Assembly (NCBI RefSeq): GCF_000026545.1
Contig: NC_011601.1
From: Escherichia coli O127:H6 str. E2348/69
Lineage (GTDB): Bacteria; Pseudomonadota; Gammaproteobacteria; Enterobacterales; Enterobacteriaceae
Direction: 5' to 3' (one strand)
DNA length: 64,000 bases
Shown: piece by piece, positions 19,301 through 25,300 of the stretch
Layout: every line of letters starts with the position of its first letter
Numbering within the stretch: the first letter of the stretch is position 1
Program-made: the position numbers

Positions 19301-22300
19301 CTTGATCATTAAAGCTCAGGGCCATGTTGTGGCGGGTCAAACACCGCTGTATGAAATCAAAAAGTAATCTGCTTTATGCCTGATGCGACGCGGCAGCGTC
19401 GCATCCAACAATAAAAAGCGGCAGGGATATTCTCTGCCGCTTTTTTTGTCTGAGATTACATTGGGAAGATAAAAACAGCGCCTGCACAAAGCGCCAGAAT
19501 GCGGATGAGATACATTGGTACAGAGAACACCCAGAATTCGGGAAGTTTGTATTTCCCCATTCCGAGGATCATGGCTGGCATTCCGTCAATAGGCATATAG
19601 CCGCCGTTCCAGCCTGAAATCACCACCGCAATCGCTGCAGCGGTCGGGTTAAGCCCAAGGCTGGTACAGGCGGCAATGGCGATGGGGGCAAAAATATAAA
19701 CAGACCCCATATTCGAACCCGTGAAGGTGGCGCAGGTACTGGTAAGCAAAGCAAAGGCGACAATAAATACAAATGGTGAGACGCCAGAACCGAGCACACC
19801 TGCAACGGCATCGCCAACCATCGCCGTAAAGCCGGTGCCCGCCAGTGCATCAGCTACACCGATCACCCCCGCCATCATTAAAATGACCGGCGCTCCCATA
19901 TGATCGCGAACTTCTTTAAAGTCCAGTACATCGATCATCAGAACAAACGCACCCGCAAGACCCGGAATAACGAAGGCGATATTTCCCAGAATGTTCATTA
20001 GCATCATGCCGATAACGCTGACAGCGAATGCGGCAATAGTGCAATATTCTTTCCAGGCAGGAAGGGCGTTAAACGTTTCCTCGCGTGCCGCCAGCGCATC
20101 CTCGGAAGCATCCGCAATGGGATGATCCGGAAGAAAACGGTAGGCAATAAGACTCCATGCGAGGAACGCCGCTGACATGATGAGATTCACCAGCGCAAAG
20201 CGCCCCATCGAAATCTCCTGATGAAAACCCGCGGTTTCGAGTACGGTCGCCGTAACGCCAAAGAGAAGCGCGAGATTGATAGGAAGAAGCGGGTGGTTGG
20301 TGGCAAATCCCAGGGGCATCATTAATTTCGATGTTGGTAGCTTTTTACTGTACGGAATGGTGGATACCAGCGACAGAATCAGCACGTAATAACCGGTCGC
20401 GCCGGTGCCTGCAAGACTGGCACCCAGCATAACAATGACTAACAACAGCCCGTAGCTGCGGTAACTGCCTTTATTGACCAGGCTTATCATCGCAGATTTA
20501 ACGTTGCTGATAAGCCGGGTTTTTTGTAGCGCTGCCATGACCACCATAAACCCTGCAATCATCACCACGCTTGGATTGACGAATCCGGCAAAAGCCTGTT
20601 GAACGGTCGAAAGTCCCGAGACAACCAGCAATAAACACGCAAGCAGTGGCGGTGCGCCAAATGGCATTTTGTCCGACATGATCAGCACGATCATCAGGAC
20701 CAGTATTCCTAATGCCAGGATCATTTCCATTGTCATTTTTTCTCTCCTTTTAGGCTTCCAGCATGTCGCGCGGTACCTTAAAGACCGCTTTGCGTACTGA
20801 CGTAGCCGCGCCAATCGCGCACAGCGCCTGGTGAGGTTCCTCAGGCATAAAGACGGCGAAATCACCGGGGTGTAGAGTGATGGCGACACTGTTTTCAGGG
20901 GATGGGGCGATAAACAGATCGGGCTTACGTTCTTCATCGTTTTCGCGAGCGATGGGCCGCGTTCCCGCATTAATGCCCTCACAACCAGTAATCACCACCT
21001 GGATATCGGCCCACAGATGGTGATACTCCGTATGGCGGAGTTCGGCGGGTTGCGTGTCTGAAGTTCCCAGCGTGCAGAACCACCGACATCCTTCAGGTTG
21101 CCAGCGACCGTCCTCTCTGGCGGATAACGCCGATAACGAACACTCCGGGCACAGCAGAATATTTCTCACCCAGGCGGGAAGCCCCGCCAGCGACAAATGG
21201 TTGAGATTACCGATAATCATGATGCCTGCCCCTTAACCCACTCGGGGGAGATGCGCACGTACTTGATGGCCTGACGCCACCAGGTGTAAGCGATATGTAG
21301 CGTACCGTCCGGGCTTTGTTTGATGCTGGGGTAGGAGAACTCACGATTTAGCTTTTCCAGGGAATTGTTGGTCATGCAGTTGCCGTCGCCTTCATCGAGA
21401 TTGCGCCGCCACGGCCAGCTTTTCCCACCATCGGCAGAAATCGCTACCGTCATCGGCGCGCGTGGGGCCCCCCAGAAAGCGGAGCGTCCGACGGCTGTCG
21501 GTTCTTTGCGGCTGTCGTCGCCATCGTCGATTTCGTCATAAAGCGACGCGCGACGTTCTACTGCGCCTGCCGCACTCATCGCGTTGTACACCAGCGCCAG
21601 TTCGCCGCTGGCAAGCGTCGTTACCTGAATAGACGAATTGTTGTTGGGCAATTCGGTAGCTTGCGGCACCGACCAACTCTCGCCGTTGTCCACTGAATGG
21701 CTGATATAGATGTTGTCTGCCCAACGGCTGCGAAAGAGAGCAACCAACGTACCGTCGTGCAGCATTGTGATATTCATATGAACGCAGCCGAGACTTTGCG
21801 GCACCTCGACATCGCGCCATGAGTGACCACCGTCAGCGGAAATTTTCACTGCGCTGATATCATCATTGCCGACCCATTTTTCGCCGGGTTGGGTACGGCA
21901 ATAAAAGACGGGAAGCAGCCAGTTACCGTTATCAAGCACCGTGATCGGCTGGCGAATGAACGTGCCGGGTTTATCGAGCAGGGTGGCAATCTCGCCCCAG
22001 GTTTGCCCAAGGTCGTCAGACTTACGGTAGCGGACGATGGCCGTGTCCTGATTACCGGATATTTGTGCGGTCCATAGCAGCCACAGCACGTTATCCGGCG
22101 CGAGAAACAGCACCGGGTTTTGCTCTGAACGCGTGTCATCGTGGGAAAGTTTGACCGCATCGCTCCACTGCGTTCTGCCAGCGGGCAATCGTGATCCCCA
22201 GACAGAAATATCGGCAATACCTTCCTGTGTTCCCGCAAACCAGACGCACATTAATGCGCCATCCGGCATTGGCAGAATATTCGCCGCGTGGTTTTGCGGG

Positions 22301-25300
22301 CAGGACGAGGGCAGCATGGCGGTAAGCACATGCGAATCGTTTTCGGATGGACGGATGACGCCGTCACGAATAAGGGCTACAGACATAGTTAGACTCCATC
22401 TTAAAGTTGGTAATAGATTTATTAATGCGAGTGCGATTCATGCGTTTCGATCAATGTCGAAACTTTTTTATTTCTTCTTTCACGGATAATATTGAGTGTC
22501 TCAACACTTAATGAGAAAAATATCGCGAAGTAGAGATACTCTTTGGCAATATGAATGTTGAGACTATCGGCAACCAGCAATACACCGACAAACAATAAAA
22601 AGGTTAACGCCAGTATTTTTATTGACGGCGTGGCGTTAACGAAATCACCAATTGTTTTCGCCGCAAACATCATGACACCGACGGCAATCATTACGGCGGC
22701 AATCATGATAAATATATGCTGAGAAAGGCCGACGGCGGTGATCACCGAATCCAGGCTAAACACGATATCGAGCAGCATTATCTGTACAATGGCACCGCAC
22801 AACGACAGTTGCCGCGATCCGCTGCCATGTTCGTCTTCCTGCGCGGGCGACAGCTCTTCGCGTATCTCCTGTATCGCTTTATAAATCAGGAACAGCCCGC
22901 CCCCGAGCAGAATCAACGTGCGGAACGAAATCTCCAGCGTCAGCACGGTAAAAAGCGGCTGGGTAATATGTGAAAGCCACGCAATGGATATCAGCAATAA
23001 TATCCGCATAATCATCGCGCAGCTTAAACCCAGTTTACGCGCCATATTTTGTTGTGATAACGGAAGTTTTGCCACCACCAGTGAAAGAAAAATAATATTA
23101 TCCACCCCAAGAATAATTTCCAGAAAGGTGAGGGTAATTAAAGTGAGCCAGATATCTGGCTGCATAAACCACAAAAACATGGGGTAATCCTTTATTCTCT
23201 TTATCTAAACTTTATAGCGGGCTGGATAATAGAGTTAATTTAATTAATGTTATAATGACGAATAATTTGTTGAATCTCGCTGATCTGTTCAGGCGTGAAA
23301 TTAACCGCGTAGCGGCTATCACCAACATCATGCCCCATAAGCTGCAACGCTTTTTTCACCGCAGCCGGGGAGAATGCTACTTTATAAAGATCGGTACGCA
23401 GGCCCGTTACACTCTCCTGTGCTTCATAAGACCCTTCAATATCACCGGCATGGAAGCGAGACCAGATGGCATTGATTTCTCGCGGCGCGATGTTGGCGAG
23501 CCCAGAGATACAGGCTGAACATCCCTCGACAAACCCTTTATGGATCAGCGAATCCGGGCCGTTGAGCACATTAAAGCCGTCAATGTCGCGCACCGCATCG
23601 AGAAAACCCTTCAGGCTTTCGTCGCTTCCGGCGCTGTCTTTAATCCCAATGATATTGGGGTGCGACGCCAGAGCACGCGCGGTTTCTGGCTGGATCGTAT
23701 TGCCAGTGCGGGCCGGGATGTTATAGAGAAACATCGGAATGCTCAGTGCGTCGGCAATTGCGCTGTAATGCGCAATCAACTCTTCCTGTTTCAGCGGTAC
23801 GAAGTAAGGGGCAATGACCGACACGGCATCTACGCCAAGTTTTTCAATCTGCTGACCCAGACGAATCGTTTCGCGCGTAGAGATCTCGCCAATGTGTGCC
23901 ACGACCGGCGCACGACCAGCCACTTCATCCACGCAGGTTTGCGTAACGCTGAGCTTCTCCTGTTCATTCAACACAAAAAATTCGCCGTTGGTGCCGCCGC
24001 AAAAAATCGCGTTACCCGCTTCCAGTTGACGATTCACCTGCACTTTTAACGCCGGGATATTCAGACTGCCGGTCGCGGTAAACGGGGTGACGATAGCGGT
24101 TAATACACCTTCAATGGTTTTCGGCATGATTTATTCCTTAAATTGATGTTGCGGAAACAGTGTTTGGTAAATGGCCTGTACGTCCTGTAGATCAAGCTGG
24201 CACGGCACATTGTTCATAAGGCGCTTCACGTTCAGTGCCGCCTCGCTAAGAGAGGCAATATCCTCTGGCGGTACGCCGAGATCTGCGAGATTGTTGGGTA
24301 GCTTGAGTTGATTGACTAATGCCTGTAACCAGGTCACCAGGGCATGAGATTTTTCTTCCGCGCTCAGGGCGGTTTCCGCATCGGGAATGCAATCCCAGAC
24401 CCGGGCAAATTTCTCGACCGCCCAGGGGCGAACAAACGCCATGCACGGCGCCAGCAAGATGGCATTCGCGACGCCATGCGGCAGATGATATTTGCCACCT
24501 AACGGGTAGGAGAGCGCATGAACGAGATGCGTGCCCGCATGGGTTATCGCTACGCCGCCATAGTAAGACGCCCACAGCATTTCCAGTTTTGCGCGCAGAT
24601 CCTGAGGATCGTTCACGGCGGGTTGAATGTGCCGGAAAAGTTTACTTAACCCAGTCAGCGCCGCGTTATCGCTGACCGGATTTGCCACGGTCGCGGTAAA
24701 ACACTCCAGTAAGTGGCAAAGAGCATCAATGCCCGTGGACGCCGCAATATGCGCAGGCATGCTGGTGGTCAGTTCCGGGAAAAGCGCCACATAGTCTGGT
24801 AACAGCATCTGGGAAATAATACCCACCTTCGTGCTTTGCTCAGGGATTGCCAGAATCGCATTCGGCGTGGCTTCTGAGCCGGTTCCGGCGGTTGTAGGAA
24901 TCAACCATGATTGCACCCGCTGAGTTGGTTTTTCACCCGCAAGCAGCGCATCCAGCCCCGGAGATTGTGGATGGCAAAGCACCGATAGCAGCTTTGCCAC
25001 ATCCAACACGCTGCCACCGCCGATCCCGACCACCACATCAAAAGAGGCATCGCCAAGGACATCCATTAGCTGGCGCACATCATGATGCGTGGGCTCTGCG
25101 GGCACATTATCGATAACGTTAACCTGCGGGCAGTGCTGTTCCAGTAAGGCGCGAATCTGCTGCACACCGTCGAGCTGCGCAATATTACGGTCAGTGACCA
25201 GCAGCATTTTTCTGATGTCGGGTAAGAGCGACGTCAGGGAAGGGATAGCGCCTGCGCCGCTCAGTATCGTGCTATTGATAATTACCACAAATAACCTCTC

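Follow-up and report, generated by a model that had tools for sequence, protein, structure and literature searches.

In a window of 64,000 nucleotides from Escherichia coli O127:H6 strain E2348/69 (enteropathogenic E. coli, EPEC; contig NC_011601.1) an island of nine genes occupies the gap between nagE and glnS. One of its genes encodes a BNR/Asp-box protein with a sialidase-like fold, in the following called BNR. We consider it rather likely that the island encodes a catabolic pathway for 3-deoxy-D-lyxo-hept-2-ulosaric acid (Dha), an assignment that is made at the level of the pathway. That BNR would serve as the cytoplasmic glycosidase of this undescribed pathway, acting as a ketosidase, falls slightly short of even odds. 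The full proposal, a complete Dha route opened by a new family of cytoplasmic sialidase-fold ketosidases, a His/His variant of glycoside hydrolase family 33 (GH33), is given a probability of roughly 0.4. The island is larger than the unit covered by a preliminary description of this DNA, which comprised BNR, a YhcH-family protein and a lyase. It consists of nine genes and includes a divergent D-threonate operon. From first to last gene, the leftward operon contains an iron-containing alcohol dehydrogenase (Fe-ADH), a lyase of the dihydrodipicolinate synthase (DHDPS) type, a TerC-family protein, BNR, YhcH and an SLC13/DASS permease; dtnK, pdxA2 and a DeoR regulator form the rightward operon (coordinates in Table 1).

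The proposed substrate follows from the end of the pathway. DtnK scored 533.5 bits against the equivalog model NF047819 (cutoff 450) and PdxA2 680.3 bits against NF002891 (cutoff 583). Zhang et al. reportedly showed in 2016 that these two enzymes together convert D-threonate to dihydroxyacetone phosphate (DHAP) and CO2. A summary of this D-threonate route is given in PMC10971088, and the identities to the Salmonella proteins are 75% for PdxA2 (P58718) and 40% for the E. coli DtnK (PMC12928451). If a pyruvate aldolase and a reductase are to yield D-threonate, the starting compound therefore has to be a C7 2-keto-3-deoxy acid with a carboxylate at the far end. The natural compound with this skeleton is most likely Dha. 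According to our own derivation, the D-lyxo centers at C4 to C6 of Dha (left, left, right in the Fischer projection) give D-threuronate upon cleavage between C3 and C4, and D-threonate after reduction. [quoted passage not shown] Other substrates were considered and rejected: Kdo leads to D-arabinose, KDN to mannose, N-acetylneuraminic acid (Neu5Ac) to N-acetylmannosamine (ManNAc), 3-deoxy-arabino-heptulosonate to erythrose and 2-keto-3-deoxy-glucarate to tartronate semialdehyde, and none of them to D-threonate.

Dha is a constituent of side chain D of the pectin rhamnogalacturonan II (RG-II), where it is present as beta-L-Araf-(1->5)-beta-D-Dha (Araf, arabinofuranose) on the galacturonic acid (GalA) backbone (bioRxiv 10.64898/2026.03.13.711244), and prasinophyte green algae contain it in their scales and thecae (PMC10762512). 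These sources fit the plant-associated and aquatic hosts of the gene cluster as well as the fungal homologs described below. A dicarboxylate of this kind also appears suited to SLC13, TAXI-TRAP and anion:cation-symporter MFS transporters, all of which are found in the clusters.

We infer every step of the pathway from sequence. A small Dha ketoside would be imported by the transporter, which is the SLC13 permease in E. coli and an SSF, TRAP, MFS or ABC system elsewhere; candidate cargo are Dha-(2->3)-GalA fragments that remain after pectin breakdown and lie beyond the reach of ordinary pectinases. BNR would then cleave the ketosidic bond with Y352 as nucleophile, R219 and R309 as carboxylate-binding residues of the GH33 type and E55 as acid/base, and R145, R221 and R371 could hold the second carboxylate of Dha. 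YhcH would open the released ring form as an anomerase or ring-opening helper. The DHDPS-type lyase would split open-chain Dha into pyruvate and the C4 aldehyde-acid D-threuronate, which Fe-ADH would reduce to D-threonate. Finally, DtnK would phosphorylate D-threonate and PdxA2 would decarboxylate the product oxidatively to DHAP and CO2. The role of BNR is modeled on the succession of sialidase, NanQ/YhcH and NanA, by analogy to which BNR would free Dha, in one of its ring anomers, from a ketoside. The retained residues that bind ulosonic acids in the -1 subsite, the adjacency to transporter genes and the occurrence of oligosaccharide-type ABC importers point to the same ketosidase role.

The family assignments of the remaining enzymes are as follows. 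The lyase shows the hallmarks of a class I aldolase of the DHDPS/N-acetylneuraminate lyase (NAL) superfamily, a Schiff-base lysine and a catalytic tyrosine: its motifs align with those of the DHDPS 3di0, with K163 in GIKDS (ALKDA in 3di0), Y135 in LYNIP and GTNGE at residues 45–49. It had been described as a NanA-family lyase, which holds for the superfamily but not for orthology to NanA, as it reaches 144.9 bits against NF003164 (cutoff 281) and 110.6 bits against TIGR00683 (cutoff 382). With 189.9 bits it also stays below the DapA cutoff of 206.15, and it misses the cutoff of KdgD. YhcH clearly belongs to its family (97.3 bits against TIGR00022, cutoff 45.5) but is not NanQ itself (91.5 bits against the NanQ equivalog NF040884, cutoff 160). 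Its closest solved structures are 9jrr (DUF386) and 1jop (YhcH), and its identity to NanQ is 33% (PMC12928451). The relatives of Fe-ADH are the models for lactaldehyde reductase, 4-hydroxybutyrate dehydrogenase and ErcA, all of them scoring below cutoff. Likewise the permease remains below the cutoff of the DASS model TIGR00785 (57 bits), and the TerC protein has sub-threshold matches to YkoY and YjbE models. None of the genes nanE, nanK and nanT accompanies the lyase and YhcH of the island.

We analyzed the conservation of this arrangement by a profile scan, built from a 12-sequence alignment and covering one genome per species. It returned 596 relatives. Most of the best 80 belong to Enterobacterales that are associated with plants (Pectobacterium, Dickeya, Pantoea, Erwinia, Rahnella, the Klebsiella oxytoca group, Kosakonia, Enterobacter), together with Bacillus swezeyi, B. 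glycinifermentans, Clostridium, Vibrio, Tolumonas, Propionivibrio and Telmatospirillum; a homolog was also found in Lactobacillus helsingborgensis. Altogether the hosts are predominantly pectinolytic or plant-associated. Co-occurrence was counted in a set of 87 loci. BNR was present in 83 of them, an SSF transporter in 68, Fe-ADH in 65, PdxA2 in 64, and the lyase, DtnK and a 226-residue short-chain dehydrogenase/reductase (SDR) in 62 each. DeoR followed with 56 and YhcH with 55 loci; SLC13 (10 loci) and TerC (9 loci) were rare. The common version reads SSF-BNR-YhcH-SDR, with BNR starting only a few bases from where the transporter gene ends, and in most relatives the BNR gene abuts a transporter gene. 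Examples of the SDR gene are found at 11635–12315 in locus L004, 11633–12310 in L013 and 9365–10174 in L078, plus 59 more loci. For both the SSF transporter and the SDR the NCBIfam models returned generic names only. The version found in E. coli, K. oxytoca, Kluyvera and Aeromonas contains SLC13 and TerC and lacks the SDR. The same SLC13 gene is present in the clusters of the K. oxytoca group, Kluyvera, Aeromonas and one Clostridium, accompanied by TerC in 9 loci; elsewhere SSF, TAXI-TRAP, MFS or ABC transporters take its place. Vibrio has a TAXI-TRAP system, and in Erwinia an anion:cation-symporter MFS protein and a 2-hydroxyacid dehydrogenase are added.

The distant clusters are the most informative. 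A proteobacterial locus from a metagenome (L007, BNR 46% identical) combines an SBP_bac_5 ABC transporter, BNR, Fe-ADH, a DHDPS-type lyase and a GntR regulator with a DUF1537 kinase, PdxA, TerC (a TerC/DUF475 gene) and an esterase. An actinomycete-like locus (L092, 40%) contains the DHDPS-type lyase, PdxA, a DUF1537 kinase, an aldo-keto reductase, a two-permease sugar-type ABC system and DeoR. In a second actinomycete-like locus (L090, 46%) a class II aldolase of the HpcH/HpaI family stands in for the class I lyase; the best models for this aldolase are GarL (2-dehydro-3-deoxyglucarate aldolase, 157 bits) and HpaI (4-hydroxy-2-oxoheptanedioate aldolase, 141 bits). GarL and HpaI split 2-oxo-4-hydroxy dicarboxylates into pyruvate and an aldehyde-acid, and a substrate that is a C7 keto-diacid would explain why an aldolase of this type can take the place of the lyase. 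Fe-ADH in turn is replaced by an aldo-keto reductase in both actinomycete-like loci. Altogether at least five transporter types, which belong to carboxylate or oligosaccharide classes, occur across the clusters of Proteobacteria, Firmicutes and actinomycete-like bacteria. What persists is a transporter together with BNR, a pyruvate aldolase from one or the other mechanistic class, a carbonyl reductase from one of the two families, a DUF1537 kinase and PdxA2. We regard this deep conservation with non-orthologous replacement as the strongest evidence for the pathway, since it suggests that the chemistry is kept.

Gene fusions connect BNR to the same enzymes. A 648-residue protein labelled HpcH/HpaI aldolase (A0A257H979, 57% identity) and a 711-residue protein from Devosia labelled 4-hydroxythreonine-4-phosphate dehydrogenase (A0A1I1JV56, 45% identity) both contain the BNR fold in about half of the chain according to their AlphaFold DB models, and in family member P0180 a PdxA domain starts after the BNR domain. 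A modular BNR protein with an additional partner domain was also noticed in Azospirillum (A0A9P1JZ79, 724 residues). In Aeromonas (L002) the cluster ends with the gene of a KdgM-family outer-membrane porin at 13888–14592. The KdgM family comprises channels for oligogalacturonate and sialic acid, and the porin is consistent with the uptake of an acidic sugar or oligosaccharide.

The BNR open reading frame (ORF) is preceded by the ribosome-binding site GGAG and encodes four strict Asp-boxes (S-x-D-x-G-x-x-W) at residues 123, 183, 231 and 317, for which about 0.009 would be expected from composition. Both the length of the protein, annotated as the same gene in RefSeq, and its four Asp-boxes had been reported correctly in the preliminary description. 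An ATGA overlap, however, was placed there at the start of BNR; in fact it joins the stop codon of BNR to the start of yhcH (GCA TCA TGA / ATG ATT), so that BNR is the upstream gene and the overlap lies at its end. Flanking by YhcH and the lyase was borne out for YhcH, which adjoins BNR directly; the lyase is present but separated from BNR by the TerC gene. Pfam BNR_2 covers residues 43–365 (E = 4e-65), and no curated NCBIfam model was matched. A search of the protein data bank (PDB) chains with the single sequence yielded matches at chance level (sialidases at E > 0.02); the BNR profile reached PDB sialidases with E-values down to 1e-10 to 1e-14. An AlphaFold2 model calculated from 30 homologs (predicted local distance difference test, pLDDT, 94.3; predicted TM-score, pTM, 0.93) is a six-bladed beta-propeller with a GH33-like fold, and the Asp-box repeats are likewise typical of that family. 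Identity to the structures compared is 13–19%, and 15–19% for the GH33 exo-alpha-sialidases. A 53% identical protein of Aspergillus luchuensis carries the UniProt label "Glycoside hydrolase family 33 protein".

No hydrophobic segment is found at the N-terminus of BNR (first 20 residues MSVALIRDGVIRPSENDSHV), the highest mean Kyte-Doolittle value of any 19-residue stretch is 1.21, and orthologs including those from other phyla start at the same point. The reported absence of a signal peptide is thus confirmed by hydropathy and by the ortholog start positions. Signal-like hydrophobic N-termini do occur in distant family members (P0153, P0216, P0259), and the cytoplasmic location looks like a property of this BNR clade. 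Strong purifying selection acts on the gene, as dN/dS values of 0.06–0.07 in comparison to Escherichia sp., Klebsiella oxytoca and Pantoea show, and about 1050 E. coli genomes carry it in intact form.

Catalytic residues were mapped by three alignments of the sequence profile to PDB entries and not by three-dimensional superposition. R219 aligns with the second arginine of the GH33 triad and H203 with the glutamate that partners the nucleophilic tyrosine, both in the alignment to the Akkermansia sialidase Am1547 ("VEATVLEM...ALART" to "VHMsIveL...alfRsR"). R309 aligns with the third arginine ("TSRSQGTI" in the Micromonospora viridifaciens enzyme), Y352 with the nucleophile of the Propionibacterium acnes sialidase and R371 with the arginine of "WER" in the same enzyme; the glutamate of this motif, which holds the first arginine in GH33, is not conserved in the BNR family. 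E55 aligns with the acid/base aspartate of leech sialidase L ("YGGTHD") and is one residue off the aspartate of NanI. In GH33 this aspartate follows the first arginine at a distance of about 25 residues. Glutamate in this position could fulfil the same role. The (F/Y)RIP motif that provides the first arginine was not found in the BNR family, so that the arginine triad of GH33 is incomplete. Instead, 22 residues before E55, an invariant motif Q-N-H33-A places His33 in the position of the first arginine. The Tyr-Glu pair is likewise not preserved, with His203 at the position of the glutamate; this residue is invariant in orthologs and a glutamine in distant secreted members. When compared with GH33 the family has three extra invariant arginines, R145, R221 and R371.

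H33, E55, Q89, R145, H203, R219, R221, N248 and N250 are invariant in 83 of 83 orthologs, and R309, Y352 and R371 in 82 of 83. In the predicted secondary structure these twelve putative active-site residues lie at the starts of the inner strands of successive blades, around the axis of the propeller. Because they are invariant in the orthologs, the propeller does not appear to be degenerate, yet it does not seem to have a canonical GH33 active site either. The comparison with GH33 that had been suggested for this protein therefore has a mixed outcome, with the tyrosine and the second and third arginines kept and the first arginine and the glutamate partner replaced. A non-catalytic propeller, which had been named as an outcome that would speak against an enzyme, was not what we found.

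In its core the earlier interpretation, that an enzyme of sialidase fold in the cytoplasm acts on an imported ulosonic acid derivative and not on sialoglycans, agrees with the fold, the absence of a signal peptide, the translational coupling to YhcH, the adjacency to transporters and the conservation. The substrates proposed at that time (nonulosonic acids, 2,7-anhydro-Neu5Ac, KDN, Kdo) point in the wrong direction, as they leave the D-threonate genes and the exchange for a GarL/HpaI-type aldolase unexplained. We thus find it partly supported, pointing in the right direction but too unspecific.

Several observations weigh against the Dha ketosidase proposal. SLC13 and SSF transporters usually carry solutes of the size of monosaccharides and not oligosaccharides. 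E. coli is devoid of pectinases, other organisms would have to supply its substrate, and Dha is a very minor component of pectin. The SDR of 62 loci, which is absent in E. coli, and TerC are needed by no proposed step. Some loci of Pantoea and Bacillus contain only SSF-BNR-SDR without lyase, kinase or PdxA2 nearby, and the neighbors of these minimal loci look unrelated (a set of phosphotransferase system, 6-phospho-beta-glucosidase and antiterminator genes, or sigma-54 regulators). Residue mapping by profile is less certain than structural mapping. Finally, the first arginine of the triad and the Tyr-activating glutamate are replaced by H33 and H203, and the chemistry may therefore not be a retaining hydrolysis of the GH33 type. 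The two histidines and the extra arginines may be related to the beta-linkage of Dha and to its second carboxylate.

Some of these points are better accommodated if the pathway is the same but BNR converts a non-glycosidic form of the C7 acid (for instance a lactone, an internal anhydro-ketal or a 2,3-unsaturated compound) to Dha by hydration or ring opening, resembling the cytoplasmic enzymes that turn 2,7-anhydro-Neu5Ac or Neu5Ac2en into Neu5Ac. We consider this the main rival for the role of BNR, although an unlikely one. Acids of monosaccharide size are a better match for SLC13, SSF and TAXI-TRAP transporters than oligosaccharides are, the invariant histidines in place of arginine and glutamate suggest an altered chemistry, and the tight pairing with the SDR could reflect a redox-assisted rearrangement. 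Yet E. coli keeps BNR without the SDR, the ABC systems of L007, L090 and L092 (SBP_bac_5 or two-permease) suggest uptake of a glycoside or oligosaccharide, and the retained tyrosine, two arginines and acid/base are what a ketosidase needs. To our knowledge no non-glycosidic Dha derivative occurs as a natural nutrient. Still less probable is that BNR hydrolyzes glycosides of sialic acid, KDN or Kdo, with a NanA-like lyase and D-threonate genes that are merely adjacent. The RefSeq names (sialidase family protein or exo-alpha-sialidase) would agree with such an activity, YhcH and a NAL-superfamily lyase are partners in sialic acid catabolism, and according to a bioRxiv paper Kdo and Dha are further targets of GH33 members. 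This would not account for the link to DtnK and PdxA2, which holds in 62–64 of the 87 loci, extends to distant phyla and includes BNR-PdxA and BNR-aldolase fusions. Moreover, the products ManNAc, mannose and arabinose do not lead to D-threonate, genes for a ManNAc kinase and epimerase are absent, the lyase and YhcH score well below the NanA and NanQ equivalog cutoffs, a class II aldolase can substitute for the lyase, and the hosts are plant-associated and not mucosal.

BNR could also remove a sugar that caps Dha, for example as a beta-L-arabinofuranosidase on the Araf-(1->5)-Dha unit of RG-II side chain D. GH93 enzymes use a pair of glutamates and are not known to have the GH33-type residues seen in BNR. 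Side chain D is freed from the oligosaccharide by heat alone (bioRxiv 10.64898/2026.03.13.711244), so that the disaccharide should occur naturally, and a disaccharide would be a likelier cargo for small transporters than a Dha-GalA oligomer; the kept tyrosine, arginines and acid/base, however, are the residues with which GH33 enzymes bind a 2-ulosonic acid in their -1 subsite, and the cluster lacks any arabinose-related gene, which makes us regard this activity as quite improbable. Hardly any weight remains for a non-catalytic propeller with a binding, scaffold or regulatory function, or for a decaying relic. Two canonical GH33 catalytic residues are indeed missing and curated NCBIfam models do not recognize the protein, but the low dN/dS, the invariant residues around the propeller axis, the fusions to enzymes in some species and the intact gene in so many E. 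coli genomes all speak for a functional enzyme.

Compared with known systems, the proposed Dha ketosidase resembles the GH33 exo-alpha-sialidases of Micromonospora viridifaciens (1EUR/1EUS), Salmonella (NanH, 1DIL) and human (NEU2, 1SNT) in the positions, by profile alignment, of the tyrosine and the second and third arginines and probably of a carboxylate acid/base, and NEU2 is a precedent for the cytosolic location. It differs from them by the missing RIP motif, His33, His203, the loss of the "WER" glutamate and the presence of R145, R221 and R371, and by a gene context that is not that of sialic acid catabolism. The RG-II Dha hydrolase domain of Bacteroides thetaiotaomicron BT_1020 (5MQS), which we take to be CAZy family GH143, was also compared. 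BT_1020 is a two-domain enzyme of 1081 residues from a polysaccharide utilization locus that acts outside the cytoplasm and is not known to be connected with a Dha pathway downstream. It is structurally farther from BNR than ordinary sialidases are, and is not among the best 60 of 97 matches of the BNR profile in the PDB.

With the NanA and NanQ/YhcH module of E. coli the island shares the adjacent pair of families and the succession of a glycosidase, an open-chain sugar and a Schiff-base lyase that forms pyruvate. The anomerase function of YhcH is said to have been established by Kentache et al. in JBC in 2021. The two systems differ in the fate of the aldehyde, which in the island would be handled by a reductase and the D-threonate enzymes. 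The GarL-GarR-GarK pathway for glucarate and galactarate offers a similar logic that is one carbon shorter: a 2-keto-3-deoxy-aldarate is split, and the aldehyde-acid is reduced and phosphorylated. An aldolase of GarL/HpaI type is actually present in place of the lyase in L090. The proposed route differs from the Gar pathway by a C7 instead of a C6 substrate, a class I aldolase, Fe-ADH and the combination of a DUF1537 kinase with a decarboxylating dehydrogenase, and by a glycosidase and YhcH that precede the aldolase. Finally, D-threonate catabolism by DtnK and PdxA2 ends in the same products, DHAP and CO2, but in the island D-threonate would be an internal intermediate and not an imported nutrient.

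The region between the divergent operons has a length of 170 bp and contains two 16-bp palindromes, TGATTGAA-TTCAATCA and TGATTGAA-TATAATCA, the second of which overlaps a promoter-like site at 25410–25438. The pattern has three matches in the window, all located in this intergenic region, compared with 0.02 expected. TGATT-N6-AATCA, most often as TGATTATATTCAATCA, occupies the corresponding place in about 70 of the 87 related loci from Klebsiella to Vibrio, and the spacing of about 105 bp between paired sites is kept in Klebsiella, Enterobacter, Kosakonia, Dickeya and Vibrio loci. It is also located upstream of the SSF gene in loci with only SSF-BNR-SDR. The motif is probably the operator of the DeoR-family regulator. 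Since the palindromes are shared in the divergent region both operons look like one regulon, and DeoR would bind to both sites and repress both operons.

Next to its conservation in other genera we assessed the distribution of the island in E. coli by comparing a stretch of 9.1 kb around the BNR gene with 5426 complete genomes. It was found at 95% identity or more in 1081 of them, in every case on the chromosome, and at least 80% of the stretch was covered in 1047. A comparative paper of 2026 designates the region "GR 6, nagE..glnS", common to the extraintestinal pathogenic (ExPEC) and adherent-invasive (AIEC) strains APEC O1, IMT5155, RS218, IHE3034, 78-Pyelo, CFT073 and LF82, and files its genes under "uncharacterized features"; a likeness to a Sinorhizobium meliloti cluster (Q92X17, Q92X22, Q92X15) was noticed there and no function assigned (PMC12928451). 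In the ExPEC, AIEC and EPEC strains of that comparison the island is fixed. A niche nutrient derived from the diet could bear on gut colonization by these lineages, and the label "exo-alpha-sialidase", which about a thousand E. coli genomes carry, is apt to mislead, as it suggests that these strains are able to desialylate host glycans.

In the literature we searched, of which coverage was partial, no paper dealt with Dha catabolism or with the function of this BNR family. Among the matches listed for "heptulosaric", papers concerned plant and algal walls or RG-II depolymerization and none the breakdown of Dha. Pathways for RG-II sugars such as Kdo are described as unconfirmed in other gut microbes (bioRxiv 10.64898/2026.03.13.711244). 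Dha has no known catabolic fate, and the proposal of six enzymes makes the question testable. If true, it would provide functions for the "predicted neuraminidase" family COG4692, a YhcH paralog, a DHDPS-family lyase and Fe-ADH as well as a natural source of D-threonate. E. coli of the B2/ExPEC type and plant-associated bacteria and fungi would then have access to pectin leftovers from primary degraders such as Bacteroides.

Table 1. Genes and palindromic sites of the nagE-glnS island (positions in the window; aa, amino acids).
Feature	Position	Strand	Remarks
SLC13/DASS-family permease, 426 aa	19456..20736	-	RefSeq WP_000177663.1; last leftward gene
YhcH/YjgK/YiaL (DUF386) protein, 156 aa	20750..21220	-	TIGR00022
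BNR/Asp-box protein, 389 aa	21217..22386	-	RefSeq "sialidase family protein" WP_000109434.1
TerC-family integral membrane protein, 252 aa	22422..23180	-	RefSeq TerC family protein
DHDPS/NAL-superfamily class I (Schiff-base) lyase, 295 aa	23240..24127	-	NCBIfam scores, catalytic motifs
Iron-containing alcohol dehydrogenase, 385 aa	24131..25288	-	First leftward gene
Palindrome 1, perfect, 16 bp, TGATTGAATTCAATCA	25307..25322	.	19 bp upstream of Fe-ADH start
Palindrome 2, 16 bp, TGATTGAATATAATCA	25413..25428	.	About 30 bp upstream of dtnK
dtnK, D-threonate kinase (DUF1537 family)	25458..26693	+	NF047819; RefSeq name dtnK
PdxA2, D-threonate 4-phosphate dehydrogenase	26686..27672	+	NF002891
DeoR/GlpR-family transcription regulator	27674..28435	+	RefSeq and family-model match

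Some further observations were made on individual genes. An ORF of 508 codons starting with GTG (19456–20982, minus strand) extends the permease gene back over yhcH except for the last 238 bases. It is an artefact of the rule that the first start is taken; the real start of the permease is the ATG at 20736, as in RefSeq. The kinase gene dtnK of E. coli is 94% identical to that of Escherichia sp. (L008) and 52–57% identical to the kinases of the Klebsiella and Enterobacter clusters (L009–L041), in which the other genes reach 70–88%. The kinase gene may have an origin different from the rest of the island.

Esterase genes (Abhydrolase_3, BD-FAE or COesterase) adjoin the clusters of Pantoea (L004, 1610–2599), L007 (3738–4661) and L090 (16151–17758), which hints at an acetyl or methyl ester on the natural substrate. 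The Pantoea locus also has an adjacent gene of the mannitol dehydrogenase family (UxaB/UxuB-like). Fungal BNR homologs, 47–54% identical and without signal peptides, were found in Aspergillus section Nigri, A. flavus/oryzae, Colletotrichum and Cercospora and suggest a transfer of the BNR gene between bacteria and plant-associated fungi. In one fungal locus (L088) the BNR gene at 10001–11182 lies beside genes for an MFS sugar transporter and a Zn-cluster regulator.

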